This document shows, piece after piece, positions 2,312-61,441 of a stretch of DNA of 64,000 nt. Made by a program: the position numbers and the translations under genes. The notes beneath the pieces were generated by a model. That model made no database searches. It was not told the DNA's origin and was given only the letters and a program-made list of their open reading frames with translations. Position 1 is the stretch's first letter. Every line of letters starts with the position of its first letter. The stretch comes from a phage, in NCBI GenBank assembly GCA_033580375.1, contig GCA_033580375.1_4527.1, one strand, 5' to 3'.

Positions 2312-3308
2312 TTCAAGTGTTGTCTATCGTGCGATAGTTACTTCAAAATTTAGAACTGAAAAAATGTTGAATTTCTACAATTCAATAGGTGATGGTGATA
2401 ATAAAAACACCATCTTTATAACGTTTGGACGGTCTGAACCATGGGCTGCTAACGAAAATGAGGTGGGCTTCGCCCCACCGTATCCAACAGACTCGGTTTT
2501 AGGTGTAACAGATATGTGGACTAACATGATGGGTTTAGTTAAAGTTATCCCATCTATGTTAGACTCGGTTATTCCTAGACGTGACTGGGGAGATATTCGT
2601 TATCCGGACCCTTATACATTCAAAATAAATGATATAGTCGTATGTAATACAGCCCCATATAATGCCACTGAAGTCGGAGCTGGATGGTTAGTATACCGTT
2701 GCGTAGATGTTCCTGATGTTGGGATGTGTTCTATTGAGTCTCTCGACAACAAAGAAGAATGTCTTAAATTAGGCGGTAAATGGACTCCATCTGTTAGGTC
2801 TTTAACCCCTCCTGAAGGCCGTGGAGATGCTGAAGGGATTATCGAAGTTGGTGATGGATATATATGGGAGTATCTTTATGAGATTCCACCCGATGTGTCT
2901 ATAAACCGATGTACTAATGAATATATAGTCGTTCCATGGCCGGAAGAAGTTAAAGAAGACCCTGCTCGTTGGGGATATGAAAACAATCTAACCTGGCAAC
3001 AAGATGATTTTGGCCTTGTGTATAGAGTTAAAGCAAACATAATTCGTTTTAAAGCCTATTTAGACTCAGTTTATTTCCCTAATGCAGCACTGCCTGGTAA
3101 TAAAGGATTTAGACAAATTTCTATTATCACAAACCCGTTGGAAGCTAAACTCCGTCCTAATGACCCTAATATAAAAGCTGAAAAGGATTATTATGACCCC
3201 AGAGATTTACAGCGTCATTCCGGTGAAATGATTTATATGGAAAACCGTCCACCTATTATTATGGCAATGGACCAAACCGAAGAGATCAATATTTTGTTTA
3301 TGTTCTAA
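2304..3308 (+). CDS. 8: Baseplate wedge protein gp8
   Basis: 334 aa, same length as T4 gp8; T4 synteny; start overlaps the end of gene 7. Confidence 0.8.
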   Translation: MNDSSVVYRAIVTSKFRTEKMLNFYNSIGDGDNKNTIFITFGRSEPWAANENEVGFAPPYPTDSVLGVTDMWTNMMGLVKVIPSMLDSVIPRRDWGDIRYPDPYTFKINDIVVCNTAPYNATEVGAGWLVYRCVDVPDVGMCSIESLDNKEECLKLGGKWTPSVRSLTPPEGRGDAEGIIEVGDGYIWEYLYEIPPDVSINRCTNEYIVVPWPEEVKEDPARWGYENNLTWQQDDFGLVYRVKANIIRFKAYLDSVYFPNAALPGNKGFRQISIITNPLEAKLRPNDPNIKAEKDYYDPRDLQRHSGEMIYMENRPPIIMAMDQTEEINILFMF

Positions 3309-3312
3309 TTTA

Positions 3313-3330
3313 GGGAGACTTCGGTCTCCC
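3313..3330 (+). terminator. Stem-loop GGGAGAC-TTCG-GTCTCCC followed by TTTCGTG, after gene 8
   Basis: Perfect 7 bp GC-rich stem with UUCG tetraloop, read directly; member of a repeated hairpin family. Confidence 0.6.
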
Positions 3331-3337
3331 TTTCGTG

Positions 3338-3345
3338 TATAAATA
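3338..3345 (+). promoter_or_regulatory. T4-type late promoter TATAAATA for gene 9
   Basis: Exact TATAAATA about 26 nt upstream of the gene 9 ATG. Confidence 0.7.
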
Positions 3346-3370
3346 GTATAAACTATTAAGGATTAGCCAC

Positions 3371-4234
3371 ATGTATATTCAAACTCCAAAACAATTGATT
3401 GACGTTGGCGAAATTGGTAACGCTTCTACAGGCGATATCCTTTTTGACGGCGGTGTTAAAATAAACAATGATATAAATGCTATTTACAATGCGTTTGGTG
3501 ACCAACGAAAAATGGCAACTGCTAATGGGACAGGACCAAATGGACAAATAATCCATGCCACTGGATACTACCAAAAAGGAGGTCCTACTGATTATTTCAC
3601 CCCTGTTCCAGTAGGAAGTAGACACGACATAGATGCTTCTACTGGTGGTGTTATTGTTACTGTTGCTAGAGGTGAACTCGGTGATTCCGTGGAATTTATA
3701 AATTCAAACGGTTCAATTTCGGTAAACAACCCATTAAGTATCCAAGCATTAGATTCTATTAAAGGTGTTGCAGGTAATTTAGTTATAACTACACCTTATA
3801 CTAAAGTTACTCTTCGTTGTATTTCTTCTGGTGCGGGCGGCTCAATATGGGATTATTCTACAGAAAGTATGTTTAGTCATACCGAAATTCCTGTAGACGG
3901 GACATGGAATATTATTTCAGACTATGTCAATATTCCTCTATTTTATAAAACTGAATATAATGCTGCTAAACTTTTGGTTACATGCCAATCTGCCAACGGC
4001 AGAAAAATTAAATCATGCGAAATAAATATTCTAATAGATACAATTAATTCAAGAGTTATTTCAACTGAATACGCAGTGATGCGCGTTGGTAATGATAACG
4101 AAGAAGACGAAATTGCGAATATTAGTTTTTCGATAATTAACAATTTTGCCACTATGACAGTTTCTTCACATATAAATGGTCTTCGAGTGGCAGCTAAAGT
4201 TATTTCAACTCAGAAAATTAGGGTCGCTCAATAA
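3371..4234 (+). CDS. 9: Baseplate wedge protein gp9 (long tail fibre socket)
   Basis: 287 aa versus T4 gp9 288 aa; synteny. Confidence 0.8.
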   Translation: MYIQTPKQLIDVGEIGNASTGDILFDGGVKINNDINAIYNAFGDQRKMATANGTGPNGQIIHATGYYQKGGPTDYFTPVPVGSRHDIDASTGGVIVTVARGELGDSVEFINSNGSISVNNPLSIQALDSIKGVAGNLVITTPYTKVTLRCISSGAGGSIWDYSTESMFSHTEIPVDGTWNIISDYVNIPLFYKTEYNAAKLLVTCQSANGRKIKSCEINILIDTINSRVISTEYAVMRVGNDNEEDEIANISFSIINNFATMTVSSHINGLRVAAKVISTQKIRVAQ

Positions 4235-6048
4235 TGAAACAAAATATTAAAATTGGGAACGTCGTTGATGACGGACAAGGCGATTACCTTCGTCGTGGTG
4301 GTGCAAAAATTAATGAAAACTTTGATGAGTTGTATTATGAATTAGGCGATGGCGAAGTTCCATATTCCGCTGGTGCCTGGAAAACATACCATTCTTCAGA
4401 TGGACTTAATTTAGCTGCTGAATGGGGTAAATCATACGCAATTGATACTTCAACAGGGCGTGTTTCTATAAATTTACCTAAAGGAACAGTGGAAGATTAT
4501 AATAAAGTAATTAGAGCCCGTGATGTATTCGCCACATGGAATATTAACCCTGTAACATTAATTGCTGCCAGCGGTGATACTATTAAAGGTTCTTCCAGCC
4601 CAGTAGAAATCAATGTGCAGTTTTCAGACTTAGAATTAGTTTACTGTTCTCCTGGGCGCTGGGAATACGTTAAAAATAAACAAATAGACAAAATTACTAG
4701 TTCTGATATTAGTAGTGTAGCTCGTAAAGAATTTTTAGTCGAAGTTCAAGGTCAAACTGATTTTCTTGATGTATTTGGGTCTGTTTCTTATAATGTGAAT
4801 AATATCCGTGTAAAACATCGTGGTAACGAATTATACTACGGTGATGCGTTCAGTGACAATAGCGACTTTGGTTCTCCAGGAGCTAATCCTGGAGAAATCG
4901 TTGCATTAGACGGTAAAAACATCCGTTTAAGACAACCATGTAATATTGGCGACACTGTACAAATTGAAACCTTTTTAGATGGGATTACACAATTACGTAG
5001 TTCTTATTCTCGTCGCCAAATACGTATTTTAGATTCGAAATTAACAACCCGTCCTTCCTTAGAAGGAAGTGTATATGTTGCTGATTTGTCAACTTTGAAA
5101 TCTATTCCTTTTTCCGCATTTGGAGTTAATCCTTCAGAACCGGTCAATACCAATTCTTTAGAAGTTCGTTTTAACGGTATTCTTCAAGAATTAGCTGGTA
5201 CTGTTGGTTTACCTATGTTCAGATGTGAAGGAGCTGACGCAGAAACTTCTACCGAGTGTTCAGCTTTAGGTGGGACTTGGGTTACATCTAACACAGATTA
5301 TTCTATTGAATATGATGATAACGATGCAACTATCGCACGTGCTTTAGTCTTTGACCGTAAGTTTGAAGACCAAGACATTATTGATATTACATGGTTTAAT
5401 AACGATTTAGGCACTTTATTAAGTATCGATGACATTTTAGATACAACTGATGAAAGGTATGTCGCACAAGGTGCAACCGTAAATGTGACAGGCGATGTGG
5501 CTTTGACCGATTTCAATAATATCGGATGGCCTAATGTAGAATCTGTTCCGGCATATAGCAGGGAATTCTCATCTATTGCAAATATTTTTAACACTATTTA
5601 CCCTGTCGGTACTATTTACGAAAATGCAGTGAACCCTAATAACCCAGCCACGTATTTAGGATTTGGCTCTTGGAAATTATGGGGACAAGGAAAAGTATTA
5701 GTTGGATGGAATGACGATATTAGCGATCCTAATTTTGCATTAAATAATAACGACCTTGATTCTAGCGGGAATCCTACACATACCGCCGGTGGAACAGTCG
5801 GAACAACGTCTAACACACTAACTAATTCTGATTTACCTCCTACTCAAACTGACGAGAAAGTTCTTATTTCCGATGAGAACGGTACAATTATTATTGGTGG
5901 TTGTCAATACGACCCTGATGCAGAAGGTCCTATATACACCAAATACCGTGAAGGCCACGCCACAACGAATAGTACACACATACCGCCTCAAGCCGTAAAT
6001 AATATTCAACCGTCAGTTACCGTATACCGTTGGGTAAGGATTGCATAA
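4234..6048 (+). CDS. 10: Baseplate wedge protein gp10
   Basis: 604 aa versus T4 gp10 602 aa; synteny; ATGA-type overlap with gene 9 stop. Confidence 0.8.
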
Positions 6049-54897: not shown

Positions 54898-54911
54898 GGG
54901 ACCGAAGTCCC
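54898..54911 (-). promoter_or_regulatory. Stem-loop GGGAC-TTCG-GTCCC between the nrdB stop/SD-like AAGGA and the denA ATG
   Basis: mRNA reads UAAGGACG-GGGACUUCGGUCCC-ACUUUAUU-AUG; the hairpin sits between an SD-like sequence and the start codon. Confidence 0.5.
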
Positions 54912-54915
54912 GTCC

Positions 54916-56091
54916 TTAGAAATATTTTTTGTATGAATTGATTACATTTTGGTCTACATCATTATCAATTTGTGCAACAAGATAAGAACTGATTTCAACT
55001 TCCTGAGGAGCTGCTTGAACTAAATCAGAGTTCAGATATTCACGAATCCAAGGATACGGATGTTTGGTCGGAGCATCAGTAATTGGACACGGCAAACCAC
55101 ACTGTTTCATACGAGACACAGTCAAGTAATCAACAAAAGCACACATACTCTGTGTATTGATACCTGGACATGTACCGTCTTTAAAGAGGTGCGCAGCCCA
55201 TTCCTTCTCTTGACTATTTACTTCCATAAAAATGTCAACTGCTTCTTGTTCACATTCTTTAGCAATTTGAACCCACTCATCGCCGTCAGTACCAGATTGA
55301 AGTTGACGGATAATGTACTGAGTACCCTTAAGGTGGAGTTGTTCGTCACGAGCAATGAACTTCATAATCTTTGCATTGCCTTCCATAATTTCCATATTTT
55401 TATGGAAGTTGAAAGTACATGCAAATGATACGTAAAAACGAATAGCTTCTAAGGCGTTGATAACGTGCAAACAGAGATAAAGAGATTTCATTAGCTCACG
55501 CTTGGCGTTAAACATTATTTCTTCGTACATCTCAATATCATTCTGCTGGCATGAGCCTAGTGAATACTCATAATTTTCCTTAGCATTTTCCCAATGGCGA
55601 GTCTTGATTAGAACATCATCATAATATTTACCTATTGATTCAGCTCGTTTCATGATTGCTTCGTCTAATACAATTTCATCAAATACCTTAGATGGATCGG
55701 TATAAAGATTTCGCATAATATGAGTATATGAACGAGAGTGAATAGTTTCACTGAATGTCCATGTTGCAACCCATGTATCTAATGAAGGGTCAGAAATAAG
55801 TGCCATAAGTACCGCAGATGGGGCCCTGCCTTGTATAGAATCTAATAATGATTGATACTTAAGATTGTTTGTAAAGATGTCCTGTTGGAACTGAGGAAGC
55901 TTATTGAACTGCGCAGAGTCCAACATCAAGTTTACCTCTTCTGGGCGCCAAAAAAATGAGAGAGATTTTTCAGTAAGGTCTTCAAAAACTTTATGACGTT
56001 GGATATCGTAACGTGCAATGCCTAAACCAGAACCAAAAAACATCGGTTCATTTAAAACATCAACTTGTTGGGTGTTAAAAACTGTGCTCAT
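54916..56091 (-). CDS. nrdB: Ribonucleotide reductase small (beta) subunit, uninterrupted
   Basis: 391 aa; di-iron/tyrosyl radical R2 family; T4 synteny; no intron. Confidence 0.9.
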   Translation of the reverse strand: MSTVFNTQQVDVLNEPMFFGSGLGIARYDIQRHKVFEDLTEKSLSFFWRPEEVNLMLDSAQFNKLPQFQQDIFTNNLKYQSLLDSIQGRAPSAVLMALISDPSLDTWVATWTFSETIHSRSYTHIMRNLYTDPSKVFDEIVLDEAIMKRAESIGKYYDDVLIKTRHWENAKENYEYSLGSCQQNDIEMYEEIMFNAKRELMKSLYLCLHVINALEAIRFYVSFACTFNFHKNMEIMEGNAKIMKFIARDEQLHLKGTQYIIRQLQSGTDGDEWVQIAKECEQEAVDIFMEVNSQEKEWAAHLFKDGTCPGINTQSMCAFVDYLTVSRMKQCGLPCPITDAPTKHPYPWIREYLNSDLVQAAPQEVEISSYLVAQIDNDVDQNVINSYKKYF

Positions 56092-56729
56092 TTAAAATCC
56101 TTAAATTTACATTTATCATAATGCCATCTTAAAGCATTACCCTTATTAACTTTCTTGCCACAATGTGGACATGGCGGATATTCAGTACCAGATTTAGTCT
56201 TTTCAGATATTAACAATTTTGTTTTATCTGTATGTGGTACACCTCTTGTTGGAGATATTGTACCATACATAGGATTAAGCACACCAAGTTTAGACTTTGA
56301 TATATTTTCACAGTGTTCTTTAGATTTAGGCTTTCTCATCCGTTGGATATGTAAATCTGTAAATTGTCGTCCTTTCAAAGCTTCGCTGATTTTAGCTTTG
56401 GTTTCCTCAGACATTTCACGTCCAGTCATAGCCTCTGATAGAAGTTTCTTGCCTAATTCGTATAGCCTAGAAGAAACGTTATAATTTCTCCCTTTATTGG
56501 TCAAACACATCATACCAAAGGCTTGTTTAAGACCAGGATAAGAATTGAATTTGGTTAATAATCTATGAGCTAAAAAGTGTTCACGACCAGTTAAATCCAC
56601 AAGGTTTTCAACATCATTGGTTCCTCCTAAACATTTAGGAATTATATGATGAGTCTCTTTATATTCGGATAAAGGTTCCCGAGCCTTCGCCCGGGAAATT
56701 AGGTCATTATAGATTTTTTGATAATTCAT
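56088..56729 (-). mobile_element. Free-standing HNH homing endonuclease (at the T4 mobE position between nrdA and nrdB)
   Basis: 213 aa; HNH motif ETHHIIPKCLGGTNDVENLVDLTGREHFLAH; C-terminal CPHCG...C zinc ribbon. Confidence 0.8.
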
Positions 56730-58984
56730 TACAATTTACACGCAGAGCAATCTTCGGCTTTAGGTGTTTCTAATTCATAGTCATCTGTACCTGACCCATC
56801 ACGAGTGTTATGATAGTAGAGGTTTTTTCCGCCAAAGTACCAGAAGTAAAGCAGATCGTCAAGCATTACTGACATTGGCACTTTACCTTTCTCAAATACT
56901 GTCGGGTCATAGTAAGTATTAGCAGAAGCAGATTGGCACACCCATTTCAACATGATAGCAACTTGGGTCAAATAAGGTTTATTACCTTTCTTAGCAAGTT
57001 TCCACGCGTAGTCGTAAAGACTCATGTTATGTTCGATATTAGGAACAACCTGACGGAAGTTGCCTTCTTTAGATTCTTTAATACTTACAGGTCCACGAGG
57101 TGGTTCTATACCGTTTGTGCTATTTGAGACTTGACTGCTTGATTCGCATGGCATGAGAGCACTAAGTGTACTGTTACGAATTCCGTGTTCTTTGAGTTCA
57201 GCTCGAAGTTCTTCCCAGTCACAGACGTAGTTCGGAGCTGCGATTTGGTCAATCTTTTTATTGTACCAGTCGATAGGTAATTCGCCTCTAGACCATTTAG
57301 TGTCTGAATAATACTCACAAGGTCCTTTTTCTTTGGCGAGCTTGATTGAAGCTTTGATAAGGCCATATTGTAATCTCTCGAACAATTCATGAGTCAAATC
57401 GTTAGCGTCTTCATATGAAGCAAAGTTAGAAGCTAACCATGCGGCATAGTTCGTCACACCAACACCGAGATTTCGACGCTTTTTAGCTTTTAAAGCTTCT
57501 GGAACCGGATAATCTTGATAGTCTAACAGGTTATCAAGTGCACGTACTTGTACTTCAGCAAGTTCATTAATTTTATCTTGGTCTTGCCAATCAAATTTAT
57601 CTAATACAAAAGCAGATAACGTGCATAAACCAATTTCAGCATCAGGACCATTCACATCATTAGTTGGAATAGCGATTTCACAACATAAGTTACTCTGACG
57701 AATTGGAGCTTTTTCACGAATAAATGGAGTGTAGTTGTTCGTGTTATCAACAAACTGTGGATAAATTCGAGCAGTACCAGAACGTTCAGTCATGAACAAT
57801 TCAAAGAGTTCTAGTGCTTTGATTCTTTTCTTTCTGATTGTTGGGTCTTTTTCAGCTTTCTCATAAAGCTCACGGAATTTATCTTGATCTTCAAAGAATG
57901 AGTAATATAGTTCGCCTGACATTTCGTGAGGGCTAAATAAAGTAATATAATCATTTTTACCAAGGCGTTCCATCATAAGGTCATTAATCTGAATTCCGTA
58001 GTCCATATGTCGAATACGGTTTTCATCCACGCCTTTGTTATTTTTCAGAACTAATAGGTTCTCTACTTCTAAGTGCCACATTGGATAATACGCTGTAGCA
58101 GCACCACCACGAATACCACCTTGAGAACAAGATTTTACTGCAGTTTGGAAATGTTTCCAGAATGGAATAACACCCGTATGTCGAACTTCACCCATACCGA
58201 TCTTAGAACCTTCTGCACGAAGCATACCAACGTTGATACCGATACCAGCTCGTTTAGAAATATATTCAATAATTGATGCTGAAGTTTTGTTAATAGATTT
58301 TAACGAATCGCCGGCTTCAATAACTACACAACTAGAGAACTGGCGAGTTGGAGTACGAGCACCTGCCATAATTGGGGTAGGCAATGAAACTTGATGAGTA
58401 GAAACAGCATCATAAAAACGAATAATATGTTTCAAACGGTCATGAGTTTCGTCTTGATGTAAGGCCATACCAATAGCCATGATAGCAAACTGTGGAGTTT
58501 CATAAATCTTCCCAGTTGTTTTATCTTTAACCAGGTATTTTTCTTTAAGCTGCATAGCACCAGCATAAGTCAGATCAAAATCTCGTTCATGTTTAATCTG
58601 AGAATCGAGATAAATGATTTCTTCTGCAGAATATCTAGACAACAACTCAGGGTCGTATTTGCCTTCATTAACACAATACGAGATATGGTCGATAAAAGCA
58701 GGAGGTTCAAACTGTCCGTACACATCTTTACGAAGTGCAAACATTAATCCTTTAGCGGCAACATATTGATAATCAGGTTCTTCGACAGAAATCGAGTTGG
58801 CTGCAACTTTAATACAAATCTTCTGAATATCTTTAGTGCTCATCCCGTCAACAAGATGGGTCTTAATTTCTTCGTACAATTCATATGGGTCGATTTGTGT
58901 TCCTTCACATTGCCAAGTTAATACTTGAATAATTTTCTGTGCATCAAAATTTTGGGATACCCCACTGCTCTTAGTTACTTGCAT
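56729..58984 (-). CDS. nrdA: Ribonucleotide reductase large (alpha) subunit
   Basis: 751 aa versus T4 NrdA 754 aa; C-terminal CSACKL-type cysteine pair. Confidence 0.9.
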   Translation of the reverse strand: MQVTKSSGVSQNFDAQKIIQVLTWQCEGTQIDPYELYEEIKTHLVDGMSTKDIQKICIKVAANSISVEEPDYQYVAAKGLMFALRKDVYGQFEPPAFIDHISYCVNEGKYDPELLSRYSAEEIIYLDSQIKHERDFDLTYAGAMQLKEKYLVKDKTTGKIYETPQFAIMAIGMALHQDETHDRLKHIIRFYDAVSTHQVSLPTPIMAGARTPTRQFSSCVVIEAGDSLKSINKTSASIIEYISKRAGIGINVGMLRAEGSKIGMGEVRHTGVIPFWKHFQTAVKSCSQGGIRGGAATAYYPMWHLEVENLLVLKNNKGVDENRIRHMDYGIQINDLMMERLGKNDYITLFSPHEMSGELYYSFFEDQDKFRELYEKAEKDPTIRKKRIKALELFELFMTERSGTARIYPQFVDNTNNYTPFIREKAPIRQSNLCCEIAIPTNDVNGPDAEIGLCTLSAFVLDKFDWQDQDKINELAEVQVRALDNLLDYQDYPVPEALKAKKRRNLGVGVTNYAAWLASNFASYEDANDLTHELFERLQYGLIKASIKLAKEKGPCEYYSDTKWSRGELPIDWYNKKIDQIAAPNYVCDWEELRAELKEHGIRNSTLSALMPCESSSQVSNSTNGIEPPRGPVSIKESKEGNFRQVVPNIEHNMSLYDYAWKLAKKGNKPYLTQVAIMLKWVCQSASANTYYDPTVFEKGKVPMSVMLDDLLYFWYFGGKNLYYHNTRDGSGTDDYELETPKAEDCSACKL

Positions 58985-59018
58985 ATATTCCTCGGTATAG
59001 GTTGATAGACATTACTCC

Positions 59019-59041
59019 AAACGGGATAGTATTTATCCCGT
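59019..59041 (-). terminator. Stem-loop AACGGGA-(9 nt)-TCCCGTT between an upstream small ORF and nrdA
   Basis: 7 bp stem followed on the - strand by the GAGGAA RBS of nrdA. Confidence 0.45.
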
Positions 59042-59071
59042 TAATTTATTATACACTTTTAAACTGAAGCG

Positions 59072-59326
59072 TTAATTATTCTTAGCAATAATTTCTTTGT
59101 ATTCTTTAGGAGTCAAGACCGTGATATCGAAATAAACCAATGGTTCTTTTTCCATACCGAATCCACCACAAAATTCACGATATTCATAAATTCGTTCATG
59201 TGAATAACAAACGAATCGTTCACCTTTAACTGTGATTTCACTATTTGGTGAAGGGATATCCAGTTCACTTGGATTTTTCATTTCAAAAATTGTGGTGCCA
59301 TATGAATTAATAAAACGTAAAATCAT
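59072..59326 (-). CDS. Hypothetical protein (84 aa)
   Basis: ORF between td and nrdA, where T4 has small nrdA.x genes. Confidence 0.5.
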   Translation of the reverse strand: MILRFINSYGTTIFEMKNPSELDIPSPNSEITVKGERFVCYSHERIYEYREFCGGFGMEKEPLVYFDITVLTPKEYKEIIAKNN

Positions 59327-59327
59327 T

Positions 59328-60188
59328 TTATACCGCCATTTTAGCTTTGATAGCTGGATGTGATTCGTAATTTTTAAGAACGAAATCAGAATGTGTCATC
59401 GTTCCAGTAACCCAGTCCATTTGGATTTTTGTAGGCCAATTCTCAAAATTACCAGGCCAATTAATTTCAAGAGAACACAACTCTTTAGGTTCACGACGAA
59501 GAACTTCTTTGCATTGCTCTACGTGGTTGCTGTAGATATGCGTATTGCCGCCTGAGAATACTAAATCACCCGGGATAAGATTACACATCTTAGCCACAAT
59601 ATGCGTCAAGGCAGCGTACGAGGCAATGTTGAACGGCAAGCCCAAGAAAACATCAACACTTCTCTGATACCATTGTAAATCAAGATGTCCATTACGCACA
59701 TTGAACTGATAGAACATGTGGCAAGGAGGAAGAGCCATTTGATTTATTTCAGCTGGATTCCAGGCAGAAACAATTTGACGACGATCAGTTGGTAATTTTT
59801 TAATACGGTCGATTGTTTCAACTAATTGGTCCACACCACCGAAATCACGCCATTGTTTACCATATATAGGACCAAGTTCACCACTATGATAACCAAGGTC
59901 TTTTGCCTGATTTTCGTAATTATCGTCCCAAATAGTTTTACCTTCAATTAGACTACCATGAGTACGAAGTCGTAATTCATTAACATTAGTAGAACCAGAC
60001 ATGAACCATAGTAACTCGGCAATACAAGCTTTCCATGCTAATTTCTTAGTTGTTACTGCAGGGAATCCTTTAGTCAGATCCCAACGTAATTTAGTTCCGA
60101 ATAGGGCAATAGTGCCTGTGCCTGTACGGTCGTCTGTTTCGTAGCCATTTTCAAAAATGTCTTTAATTAAATCTTGGTATTGTTTCAT
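59328..60188 (-). CDS. td: Thymidylate synthase, uninterrupted (no group I intron)
   Basis: 286 aa continuous ORF; sequence MKQYQDLIKDIFENGYETDDRTGTGTIALFG... matches T4 TS across the site where T4 has its intron. Confidence 0.95.
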   Translation of the reverse strand: MKQYQDLIKDIFENGYETDDRTGTGTIALFGTKLRWDLTKGFPAVTTKKLAWKACIAELLWFMSGSTNVNELRLRTHGSLIEGKTIWDDNYENQAKDLGYHSGELGPIYGKQWRDFGGVDQLVETIDRIKKLPTDRRQIVSAWNPAEINQMALPPCHMFYQFNVRNGHLDLQWYQRSVDVFLGLPFNIASYAALTHIVAKMCNLIPGDLVFSGGNTHIYSNHVEQCKEVLRREPKELCSLEINWPGNFENWPTKIQMDWVTGTMTHSDFVLKNYESHPAIKAKMAV

Positions 60189-60233
60189 TTAGTACCTTAT
60201 ATAAATTATAATACATTTTATGAAGCTAAATAA

Positions 60234-60593
60234 TCAATACAGTTTAGCATCAAATTTTCTTTCGATTTCAGGAGTGAAATATAATTCTTTACCACGTTTA
60301 GAAAAGCGACCAATAATATGATAATTATTCTCATCAAATGTGATATTGCCAATATCCGTAGCTTTCAACCAAATATCGATATTTCTATCCAGCTTTATGT
60401 CAAAATTCCAATACGGAGAACTATTACCGAAAATACTACAAGCGGATTCAGTGAAACAACTGCTATAAATCTTGTCTTTAGGAACTACTAATTGATAGAC
60501 GCCTTTAATAAACTGGGGACCCTGCCACTTTGGCTGTTTCTCATCTTTTTCTAATAGAATAGGGTAATAATTAAAGTTCATATTTTCCGCCAC
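60234..60593 (-). CDS. Hypothetical protein (119 aa) between frd and td
   Basis: ORF in operon orientation. Confidence 0.5.
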   Translation of the reverse strand: MAENMNFNYYPILLEKDEKQPKWQGPQFIKGVYQLVVPKDKIYSSCFTESACSIFGNSSPYWNFDIKLDRNIDIWLKATDIGNITFDENNYHIIGRFSKRGKELYFTPEIERKFDAKLY

Positions 60594-60601
60594 GCGTTAT
60601 T

Positions 60602-61431
<830 letters not shown>

Positions 61432-61441
61432 ATTATTTTCC

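Follow-up and report, generated by a model that had tools for sequence, protein, structure and literature searches.

The td and nrdB genes of this phage are continuous and intron-less, and the junction between nrdA and nrdB is occupied by a 213-codon gene that, judged from its sequence, is an intact, full-length MobE-family HNH homing endonuclease gene with predicted nuclease activity. By analogy with T4, it is highly probable that we are dealing with an RB69/phiC120-like phage that has intron-less td and nrdB and an intact MobE that homes by a T4-like mechanism.

Gene order in the td-nrdB region

The window, by which we mean the whole stretch of 64,000 nucleotides that was analysed, has a backbone that is 98% identical to phiC120, ESh27 and RB69, and on this evidence the source phage is an RB69/phiC120-like Mosigvirus of the T-even type. 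Its nucleotide metabolism operon runs in the order td, nrdA.2, nrdA, mobE, nrdB:

59328..60188, minus strand: td (thymidylate synthase), 286 aa, no intron (ORF scan, Pfam)
59072..59326, minus strand: nrdA.2-like small ORF, 84 aa, a conserved neighbour in the gap between td and nrdA (DUF5496, phrog_2458)
56729..58984, minus strand: nrdA (ribonucleotide reductase large subunit), 751 aa (ORF scan, Pfam)
56088..56729, minus strand: putative mobE-family free-standing HNH homing endonuclease gene, 213 aa (ORF scan, Pfam, homology)
54916..56091, minus strand: nrdB (ribonucleotide reductase small subunit), 391 aa, no intron (ORF scan, Pfam)
54898..54911, minus strand: terminator-like GC hairpin with a T-rich tail, directly downstream of the nrdB stop codon

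The ORF scan reproduced the lengths of td, nrdB and the HNH gene (286, 391 and 213 aa) that a sequence-only reading of this DNA had given. Pfam Thymidylat_synt matches td in a single stretch (1.4e-97, profile positions 1-266 of 266), Ribonuc_red_sm likewise matches nrdB in a single stretch (2.9e-37), and for nrdA the ATP-cone, lgN and lgC domains were recognized. The KAW3E185 record has an annotated terminator at the equivalent place after nrdB. An unrelated Tequatrovirus-like patch of ~1.3 kb lies just upstream in the same window.

td and nrdB lack the T4 introns

The sequence-only reading had described td and nrdB as continuous ORFs without the introns and intron-encoded endonucleases of T4. 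Continuity is borne out by the ORF scan and the single-stretch Pfam matches, and the absence of the T4 elements was confirmed by alignment to the T4 exons. In BLASTN comparisons with the T4 genes, td and nrdB each match the two T4 exons in succession, leaving the T4 intron between them unpaired (1017 nt for td and 598 nt for nrdB), and the junction reads straight through (GGC/TTGCCG in td and GCAT/GTACT in nrdB, with the slash marking the junction). Since each gene lines up without interruption on the joined T4 exons, neither of the T4 intron sites is occupied:

59640/59639, minus strand: empty T4 td-intron insertion site (colinear alignment to spliced T4 exons)
55419/55418, minus strand: empty T4/RB3-type nrdB-intron insertion site (colinear alignment to spliced T4 exons)
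59662-59666: counterpart of the I-TevI CNNNG cleavage motif in td, reading CAGAG

The nucleotide alignment to T4 td and nrdB contained no short hidden intron, and there were no gaps relative to the intron-less RB69 and phiC120. KAW3E185 carries an insert of ~1.1 kb exactly at window position 55419. An Rfam scan at gathering thresholds of the window and the T4 and KAW3E185 control loci returned zero matches; as even the known T4 introns in td and nrdB escaped it, we regarded it as uninformative and did not use it for intron absence.

Among ~900 T-even records that match the region, the td intron is largely present in 197 and the nrdB intron in 118; the intron-less condition is the majority state and no special feature, and the combination of mobE with an intron-less nrdB is already present in T6 and LF82-1. 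We considered and rejected the possibility that td or nrdB is a recent precise intron-loss allele: the nrdB site is not surrounded by T4-like exon sequence, and at the td site there is no more than a local clustering of synonymous changes.

The 213-aa protein is a MobE homologue

The 213-aa protein matches Pfam NUMOD3 (2.5e-9), Pfam HNH (6.1e-5, 23.5 bits with a cut-off of 21.4) and phrog_655, 'homing endonuclease' (7.7e-63). Its recognizable parts are the following:

56565-56651, minus strand: N-terminal HNH core, residues 27-55
56370-56423, minus strand: NUMOD3 motif as called by Pfam, residues 103-120
56109-56171, minus strand: C-terminal CX2CX12HX3C zinc finger, residues 187-207

Residues H27, H28, N42, H51, H55, C187, C190, H203 and C207 are invariant in 49 homologues. 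The metal motif, C187-X2-C190-X12-H203-X3-C207, contains a single CxxC (C187 and C190), and its remaining ligands H203 and C207 sit on a predicted helix (residues 196-207). The C-terminal 'zinc ribbon' of the sequence-only reading, which would call for two CxxC/CxxH knuckles, was thus mistaken: there is only one knuckle, H203 and C207 are supplied from the helix and not from a second one, and the spacing is that of an I-TevIII-type zinc finger. A search of PDB sequences with the 213-aa protein gave no significant match, the best being antibody chains and a designed zinc-finger protein (E >= 0.06).

The placement of the HNH gene at the T4 mobE position, in contrast, stands, since both the slot and homology to the T4 and T6 MobE proteins agree with it. 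Identity is 59% to T4 MobE (residues 1-119), 77% to T4 nrdB.1 (residues 131-213), 61% to the 232-aa KAW3E185 form and 74.6% to the T6 protein of the same slot (AP018814 EcT6_00228), and the LF82-1 'homing endonuclease' in the equivalent slot is a 100% identical protein. The nrdA-nrdB slot is occupied likewise in T4, T6, LF82-1, mogra and KAW3E185. The exact 213-aa protein occurs on 19 public contigs, and in all eight of those inspected it lies between nrdA and nrdB. On these sequence comparisons the protein is a true MobE homologue, beyond mere positional equivalence. The T4 reference record shows mobE as two fragments, but strain GT7 has one continuous 232-aa ORF, so that the split looks like two single-base errors or strain-specific changes.

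Regulatory elements within mobE

The start of mobE overlaps the nrdA stop codon (TAATGA at 56727-56732, minus strand), and its own stop codon overlaps the nrdB start (ATGA). Two further elements lie within the gene:

56676..56697, minus strand: hairpin with a 9-bp stem and a 4-nt loop followed by CCUUUAU, at mobE nt 33-54
56257..56281, minus strand: candidate for a MotA-type middle promoter, TGCTTAA-N12-TACAAT, within the 3' part of mobE and ~170 nt ahead of the nrdB ATG

A weak intrinsic terminator has been mapped inside T4 mobE, ~27-30 nt downstream of the AUG (Wilson & Edgell 2009, PMC2790892). The hairpin in the window has a folding energy of -16.3 kcal/mol, compared with -16.7 in the same register in T4 and T6, although its z-score against shuffled sequence is only -1.74; it differs from the T4 hairpin by one G-U pair and by a GAAG instead of a TCAG loop. 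By analogy, it is the counterpart of the T4 mobE terminator and would presumably act as one. Our simple promoter and terminator scan did not pick it up, the U-tract being too short, and the sigma-70 matches of that scan were near chance level.

In T4, the nrdB middle promoter is located in mobE, which has been argued to select against mobE deletion (PMC2790892). The T4 record AF158101 has no promoter features annotated in this region. The sequence of the promoter candidate is conserved in T4 and KAW3E185. Because the pattern matches 20 times in the window, with 6 matches expected by chance, a single MotA-type site is weak on its own.

A near-identical mobE cassette in differing backbones

In T2, a MobE-dependent nick maps to nrdB nt 122-126, cleavage by the purified protein having never been shown for T4 MobE, and in the progeny of T4 x T2 crosses the recombination point lies within the first 189 nt of nrdB (PMC2790892). 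The corresponding features here are:

55912..56747, minus strand: shared mobE cassette of ~840 bp (informative sites, identity across carriers)
55936..55970, minus strand: putative counterpart of the MobE target, with nrdB nt 122-126 at 55966-55970 and the FFWRPEE-coding block at 55936-55956

Besides the whole of mobE, the cassette takes in ~20-35 nt from the end of nrdA and ~180 nt from the beginning of nrdB. At informative sites, the window equals phiC120 up to nrdA nt 2220 and again from nrdB nt 204, and it equals LF82 from nrdA nt 2238 through nrdB nt 180 (26 of 27 sites within nrdB), which places the junctions in the intervals 56747-56765 and 55888-55912. The junction in nrdA falls 18-36 nt before the insertion point and the junction in nrdB 55-80 nt past the published nick site, so that the two bracket that site. 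LF82-1 and eight metagenomic contigs carry the cassette with 99.2-99.9% identity, whereas the flanks are only 89-99% identical; within mobE, the window and LF82-1 differ at two positions, both synonymous. All close carriers of this variant that we inspected have RB69/phiC120-like flanking genes, and the variant forms a cluster of its own, with neighbours at 99%, 93% and 80% identity.

In the target region, the window encodes E-K-S-L-S-FFW and the mobE-less phiC120 encodes E-K-Q-L-S-FFW; the RB69 allele has a 3-nt deletion. The carrier's nrdB allele, which differs at these codons, is presumed to resist its own MobE. We interpret the cassette in its phiC120-like backbone as a natural co-conversion tract, with MobE as the probable cause. 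The pattern is consistent with homing without proving that the endonuclease caused it, and it gives no direction of transfer.

Alternative explanations

The block of ~840 bp could instead reflect ordinary homologous recombination among co-infecting Mosigviruses, or shared ancestry, with no part played by the endonuclease. T-even genomes are highly mosaic, as the Tequatrovirus-like patch of ~1.3 kb in the window illustrates, and a pattern of informative sites cannot by itself identify what initiated an exchange. We nevertheless consider this unlikely: both junctions hug the element and agree with the recombination point observed in T4 x T2 progeny, and the near-identical block is found in several distinct backbones. 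That spread also bears on whether the gene might be a decayed or domesticated remnant that no longer cuts and is kept for the nrdB middle promoter and for a terminator that balances NrdA and NrdB. The argument that the internal nrdB promoter selects against loss of the gene (PMC2790892) would favour such a remnant, as would the fragmented mobE of the T4 reference record and the neighbouring I-TevIII of T4, a known defunct endonuclease. However, the ORF is full length and retains all of the invariant HNH and zinc-ligand residues, and strain GT7 lacks the T4 split. Because the protein is 100% conserved across differing backbones, with only the two synonymous DNA differences from LF82-1, recent spread fits better than decay, and we hold a non-cutting remnant to be quite improbable.

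It is very hard to see the gene as an endonuclease of another type, either a Hef-like enzyme as in phage U5 or a copy of I-TevIII displaced from the nrdB intron. Endonucleases of more than one type, Hef among them, are known from the nrdA-nrdB slot (PMC2988022), and BLASTP pairs the C-terminal zinc finger with that of I-TevIII (E = 5e-4 over 25 aa). Identity to the T4 and T6 MobE proteins, however, extends end to end, and a 269-aa I-TevIII-like ORF is similar only in one zinc finger and, at 29% identity, in the HNH core. Hef is described as unique and distinct from the HNH enzyme MobE (PMC2988022), and it is by description that we set it apart here.

Proposed mechanism and significance

In the T4-like mechanism that we favour, mobE would have no promoter of its own and would be transcribed, as in T4, from promoters upstream of nrdA. 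Its translation would be coupled to that of nrdA via the UAAUGA overlap and its transcript level lowered by the hairpin terminator near the 5' end, and the MotA-type middle promoter in the 3' part would restore transcription of nrdB. During mixed infection with a phage that lacks mobE, the protein would use its NUMOD3 repeats and C-terminal zinc finger to dock on the conserved 5' region of that phage's nrdB, where its HNH domain would introduce a nick or break near nt 122-126. As the damage is repaired by recombination with the genome that carries mobE, the gene and short stretches on either side of it would be copied into the recipient.

A broader and more tentative reading, which we think possible but doubtful, is that the 213-aa and 232-aa MobE lineages are competing, cross-cutting alleles, each with a resistant nrdB, and that the cassette in the window is in the middle of a recent sweep through Mosigviruses. 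The 213-aa forms may be tied to an E-K-S-L target and the 232-aa forms to E-R-Q-I/L, and each lineage might cut the allele of the other as well as the mobE-less E-K-Q-L allele. A recent sweep is suggested because copies of the cassette in at least five different backbones diverge by no more than 0.8%.

The arrangement itself is ordinary and already described, as MobE, its slot, its regulation and its nrdB target are known for T4, and little new is added by a protein of which an identical copy is already deposited and annotated as a homing endonuclease. The near-identical cassette of ~840 bp amid differing flanks is new but expected. Its value is modest: it provides a clean natural example of a short co-conversion tract that brackets an experimentally mapped nick site, and the various MobE sub-lineages are accompanied by distinct target-site alleles of nrdB. 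It is reasonable to regard the region as a natural test case for homing, as the sequence-only reading suggested, and the phage could serve as a donor against RB69 or phiC120 for studies of MobE specificity and immunity.

Comparison with known systems

RB69, phiC120 and RB32 share with the window a continuous td of 861 nt and a continuous nrdB of ~1.17 kb, and td is 97.8% identical to that of phiC120. RB69 and phiC120 differ in that they have no gene between nrdA and nrdB, the gap being just 55 bp, and in that the first ~180 nt of nrdB in the window are only ~86% identical to theirs.

With T4 MobE, the gene shares the slot, the UAAUGA start overlap, the 5' internal hairpin, the N-terminal HNH domain and the conserved sequence of the MotA-type promoter candidate in the 3' part. 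Because a 19-residue stretch is missing in the NUMOD3-repeat region, the protein has 213 aa compared with 232 aa in T4. The linked nrdB target codons are E-R-Q-I in T4 and E-K-S-L here, and unlike T4, the present Mosigvirus offers neither an nrdB intron nor I-TevIII for mobilisation in trans. The T6-type 213-aa MobE, of which there are many Tequatrovirus homologues, is alike in length, slot, ATGA overlaps and intron-less nrdB neighbour, and its nrdB target region also encodes E-K-S-L-S-FFW, but protein identity is only 73-75%.

I-TevIII of phage RB3 has a similar N-terminal HNH domain, a C-terminal CX2CX12-13HX3C zinc finger and a target in nrdB, which for the window protein is presumed. The zinc-finger motif of I-TevIII was shown to bind zinc and is required for DNA binding (Robbins et al. 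2007, PMC1865063). I-TevIII differs in being encoded inside the nrdB intron, in its 269 aa with two zinc fingers, and in acting as a dimer that breaks both DNA strands, 14 and 16 bp upstream of the point where the intron is inserted, whereas the window protein is free-standing, combines one finger with NUMOD3 repeats, and has a presumed target ~550 nt upstream of the nrdB intron insertion site.

Gene order and empty intron sites

A six-frame ORF scan reproduced the coordinates of the sequence-only reading and resolved the region as follows:

54916-56091, minus strand, nrdB (391 aa)
56088-56729, minus strand, HNH ORF, mobE (213 aa)
56729-58984, minus strand, nrdA (751 aa)
59072-59326, minus strand, nrdA.2-like ORF (84 aa)
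59328-60188, minus strand, td (286 aa)
55419/55418, minus strand, empty T4 nrdB-intron site, window uninterrupted at the junction
59640/59639, minus strand, empty T4 td-intron site, window uninterrupted at the junction

Each gene assignment is backed by full-length, single-stretch Pfam matches: Thymidylat_synt for td (1.4e-97, profile positions 1-266 of 266), Ribonuc_red_sm for nrdB (2.9e-37), ATP-cone, Ribonuc_red_lgN and Ribonuc_red_lgC for nrdA, and NUMOD3 (2.5e-9) and HNH (6.1e-5, exceeding the HNH gathering score) for the 213-aa ORF. The neighbouring genes are denA (GIY-YIG, 136 aa), rnlA and frd. Megablast placed the window in the genus Mosigvirus, within the RB69/phiC120 group, to which the structural genes and the 10 kb downstream of nrdB are ~98% identical. 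With the HNH gene left out, the td-nrdB region is 97.8% identical to phiC120; in RB69 and phiC120 the nrdA-nrdB gap is a 55-bp spacer without a gene.

Both td and nrdB, described from the sequence as intron-less, read continuously across the T4 intron sites. BLASTN aligned each gene with its T4 counterpart as two colinear blocks with the T4 intron looped out (td nt 1-548 with T4 1-548 and 553-861 with 1570-1878; nrdB nt 1-671 with T4 1-662 and 674-1139 with 1263-1728). By the junction sequences, the 1017-nt td intron of T4 (NC_000866) follows td nt 549, and its 598-nt nrdB intron follows the equivalent of window nrdB nt 673; because the window is uninterrupted at both, these are empty sites. 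A multiple alignment of the window and five Mosigviruses contained no gaps in td, and the ~1.1-kb insert in KAW3E185 nrdB, an intron with a 269-aa HNH ORF, mapped exactly to window position 55419. Scanned with Rfam at gathering thresholds, the window, T4 and KAW3E185 yielded no group I intron; because the T4 td and nrdB control introns and the KAW3E185 nrdB intron were missed as well, this negative result carries no weight and is not evidence for intron absence in these phages. Intron-less alleles are the common state: among ~900 phage records matching the region, the td intron occurs in 197 and the nrdB intron in 118, a record being counted when at least 80% of the respective intron was present.

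Some Mosigvirus relatives carry a MobE gene together with an nrdB group I intron that holds a full-length 269-aa I-TevIII-like HNH ORF. Examples are an SRR25571640 contig (4001-6905), with the identical 213-aa MobE, and KAW3E185 (2656-4981), with a 232-aa MobE and an nrdB that lacks spliced-gene annotation. In T6 (AP018814, 1-1746), nrdA.1, nrdA.2, one small ORF and gene 55 (late sigma factor) lie upstream of nrdA; td and frd are missing from this stretch, which suggests that the assembly has the td-frd-32 block elsewhere or rearranged.

The td allele and its neighbourhood

I-TevI requires a C-N-N-N-G motif. At the corresponding position the window has CAGAG, phiC120 has CAAAG, and RB69 and T4 have CAACG; the position is variable among intron-less phages. 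Provided that the motif requirement is right, the window td allele may be cleavable by I-TevI. Window and phiC120 td differ at 19 positions, seven of which cluster within 60 nt (window 59628-59688, td nt 501-561) around the cleavage-motif position and the empty intron site. Six of these seven are synonymous, the other giving His at codon 167 of the window gene against Tyr in phiC120. Eight more differences, at td nt 16-36, lie at the edge of a ~1.3-kb patch (window ~60140-61440) that is ~95% identical to the Tequatroviruses RB32, RB33 and NBEco003 and is flanked on both sides by phiC120-like Mosigvirus backbone. This patch, an inter-genus mosaic segment adjoining td, contains:

td nt 1-~40
60234-60593, 119-aa ORF
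60602-61186, frd
61186-61431, 81-aa ORF

The window frd is only ~64% identical to that of phiC120. Between frd and td, the 119-aa ORF belongs to phrog_1928 (function unassigned), had no Pfam match and is housed in a 417-bp insert (window 60180-60608). The frd-stop/td-start junction recurs at the two insert ends as an 11/12 direct repeat, with TAAATGAAACAA at the start of td and TAAATGAAATAA following frd. The insert is absent from RB69, phiC120 and T4, whose frd and td genes overlap, and RB32 has a copy that its record describes as 'flanked by 9 bp repeat'. The segment has the look of a small inserted cassette, which may or may not be mobile.

The HNH protein is a complete MobE

The proposed placement of the HNH gene at the T4 mobE position, the nrdA-nrdB junction, is borne out by its slot and by homology to MobE. 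Tblastn identified the identical protein in ten LF82-series records, annotated as 'homing endonuclease', and a 213-aa gene with 74.6% identity in the same slot of T6. The protein matched phrog_655 'homing endonuclease' (7.7e-63, PHROGs) and belongs to a well-populated family in a large protein database, its neighbours sharing 99%, 93% and 80% identity with it and many members 73-75%. Whole-chain structure searches and a PDB sequence search with the protein were uninformative.

Residues 1-119 are 59% identical to annotated T4 MobE (141 aa) and residues 131-213 are 77% identical to annotated T4 'nrdB.1' (83 aa), and both parts are spanned, at 61% identity, by the 232-aa KAW3E185 and mogra proteins. 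In T4 strain GT7 (KJ477686, 301-999) the mobE/nrdB.1 region is a single continuous 232-aa ORF, relative to which the T4 reference (NC_000866, 6717-7417) has one additional A within a run of As and one additional C. Sequencing errors or frameshifts specific to the strain are the likely explanation. The reference 'mobE' and 'nrdB.1' are pieces of this one ORF, which is uninterrupted in GT7, mogra and KAW3E185 and lacks annotation in the GT7 record. The GT7 ORF and the part-by-part T4 matches together indicate that full-length MobE consists of an HNH domain, NUMOD3 repeats and a C-terminal zinc finger; the window protein is a complete version minus a 19-residue stretch in the NUMOD3-repeat region.

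In a 49-homologue alignment, Y23, E25, H27, H28, P31, G36, N42, L46, E50, H51, H55, L58 and A70 were invariant, as were the metal-motif residues C187, C190, H203 and C207. I-TevIII fingers of the form CX2CX12-13HX3C bind zinc and are required for DNA binding (PMC1865063). The window motif, C187-X2-C190-X12-H203-X3-C207, has this spacing and aligns with the second zinc finger of the KAW3E185 I-TevIII-like ORF (E = 5e-4), which identifies it as an I-TevIII-type zinc finger. In an AlphaFold2 model (mean pLDDT 86.6), H203 and C207 lie on a helix (residues 196-207). Motif and modelled helix led us to reject the 'zinc ribbon' of the sequence-only reading, whose observation and interpretation were otherwise correct.

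A shared cassette and its target alleles

Informative sites in a three-way comparison of the window, LF82-1 and phiC120 showed that the window tracks phiC120 in nrdA up to nt 2220, LF82-1 from nrdA nt 2238 across mobE to nrdB nt 180 (26 of 27 nrdB sites), and mainly phiC120 again from nrdB nt 204. These switches delimit a block of ~840 bp shared with LF82-1, from which the window differs within mobE at only two positions, both synonymous. The junctions of the block lie 18-36 nt upstream of the mobE insertion point and 55-80 nt past the nick site. In T2, the nicks that depend on MobE fall at nrdB nt 122-126, adjoining an FFWRPEE-coding block (PMC2790892). The corresponding window features are:

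55912-56747, minus strand, shared block (~840 bp)
55966-55970, minus strand, nick-site equivalent in nrdB (T2 nrdB nt 122-126)
55936-55956, minus strand, FFWRPEE-coding block equivalent in nrdB

The exact 213-aa protein was found on 19 public contigs and occupied the nrdA-nrdB slot in all eight inspected, one of which also has the nrdB intron with the 269-aa HNH ORF. Across the inspected carriers, cassette identity is 99.2-99.9% and that of flanking segments 88% to 100%. This pattern would be expected of an element recently spread among related genomes; it proves neither endonuclease-initiated exchange nor the direction of transfer.

The nrdB target codons vary with the resident endonuclease form: E-K-S-L-S-FFW in the window, LF82-1 and T6 (213-aa forms), E-R-Q-I/L-S-FFW in T4, mogra and KAW3E185 (232-aa forms) and E-K-Q-L-S-FFW in mobE-less phiC120. 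RB69, also mobE-less, encodes E-I-L-S-FFW through a 3-nt deletion and a substitution at the published nick site (nrdB nt ~121-129), which alter codons 42-43 (E-K-Q-L to E-I-L) and leave a 390-aa NrdB. The change may confer resistance or be a scar left by repair.

Comparison with T4 mobE

Of the features described for T4 mobE (PMC2790892, PMC2988022), the start overlap and the hairpin have counterparts in the window, and the promoter has a candidate one. The nrdA stop and mobE start overlap as TAATGA, as in T4, and the mobE stop and nrdB start overlap as ATGA. Two further elements lie within the gene:

56676-56697, minus strand, hairpin at mobE nt 33-54 (9-bp stem, 4-nt loop, then CCUUUAU)
56281-56257, minus strand, MotA-box pattern TGCTTAA-N12-TACAAT in the 3' part of mobE, candidate promoter

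The hairpin folds at -16.3 kcal/mol and those of T4 and T6, in identical register, at -16.7; the window hairpin differs from them by one G-U pair and in its loop sequence. The MotA-box sequence is kept in T4 and KAW3E185. The window contains more matches to this pattern than expected (20 against 6), and the single site in mobE counts only as a candidate promoter.

By homology and conserved context, the window gene most likely works like T4 mobE, and it is by this analogy that we infer its nuclease activity, target and donor-allele immunity. mobE would be transcribed together with nrdA and coupled to it in translation, the internal hairpin would lower the mobE transcript level, and the promoter within the mobE 3' end would restore nrdB expression. 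MobE would bind a mobE-less nrdB allele via its NUMOD3 repeats and zinc finger, the HNH domain would nick it near nt 122-126, and repair off the donor genome would copy mobE and short flanks to the recipient.

This gene arrangement has been described before, and public records already include the identical protein with its annotation. The nrdB junction of the cassette matches the recombination point in the progeny of T4 x T2 experiments, which lies inside the first 189 nt of nrdB (PMC2790892). With a cassette read as a natural co-conversion tract and target alleles specific to each lineage, the window makes a tidy illustration of this system rather than a surprise.
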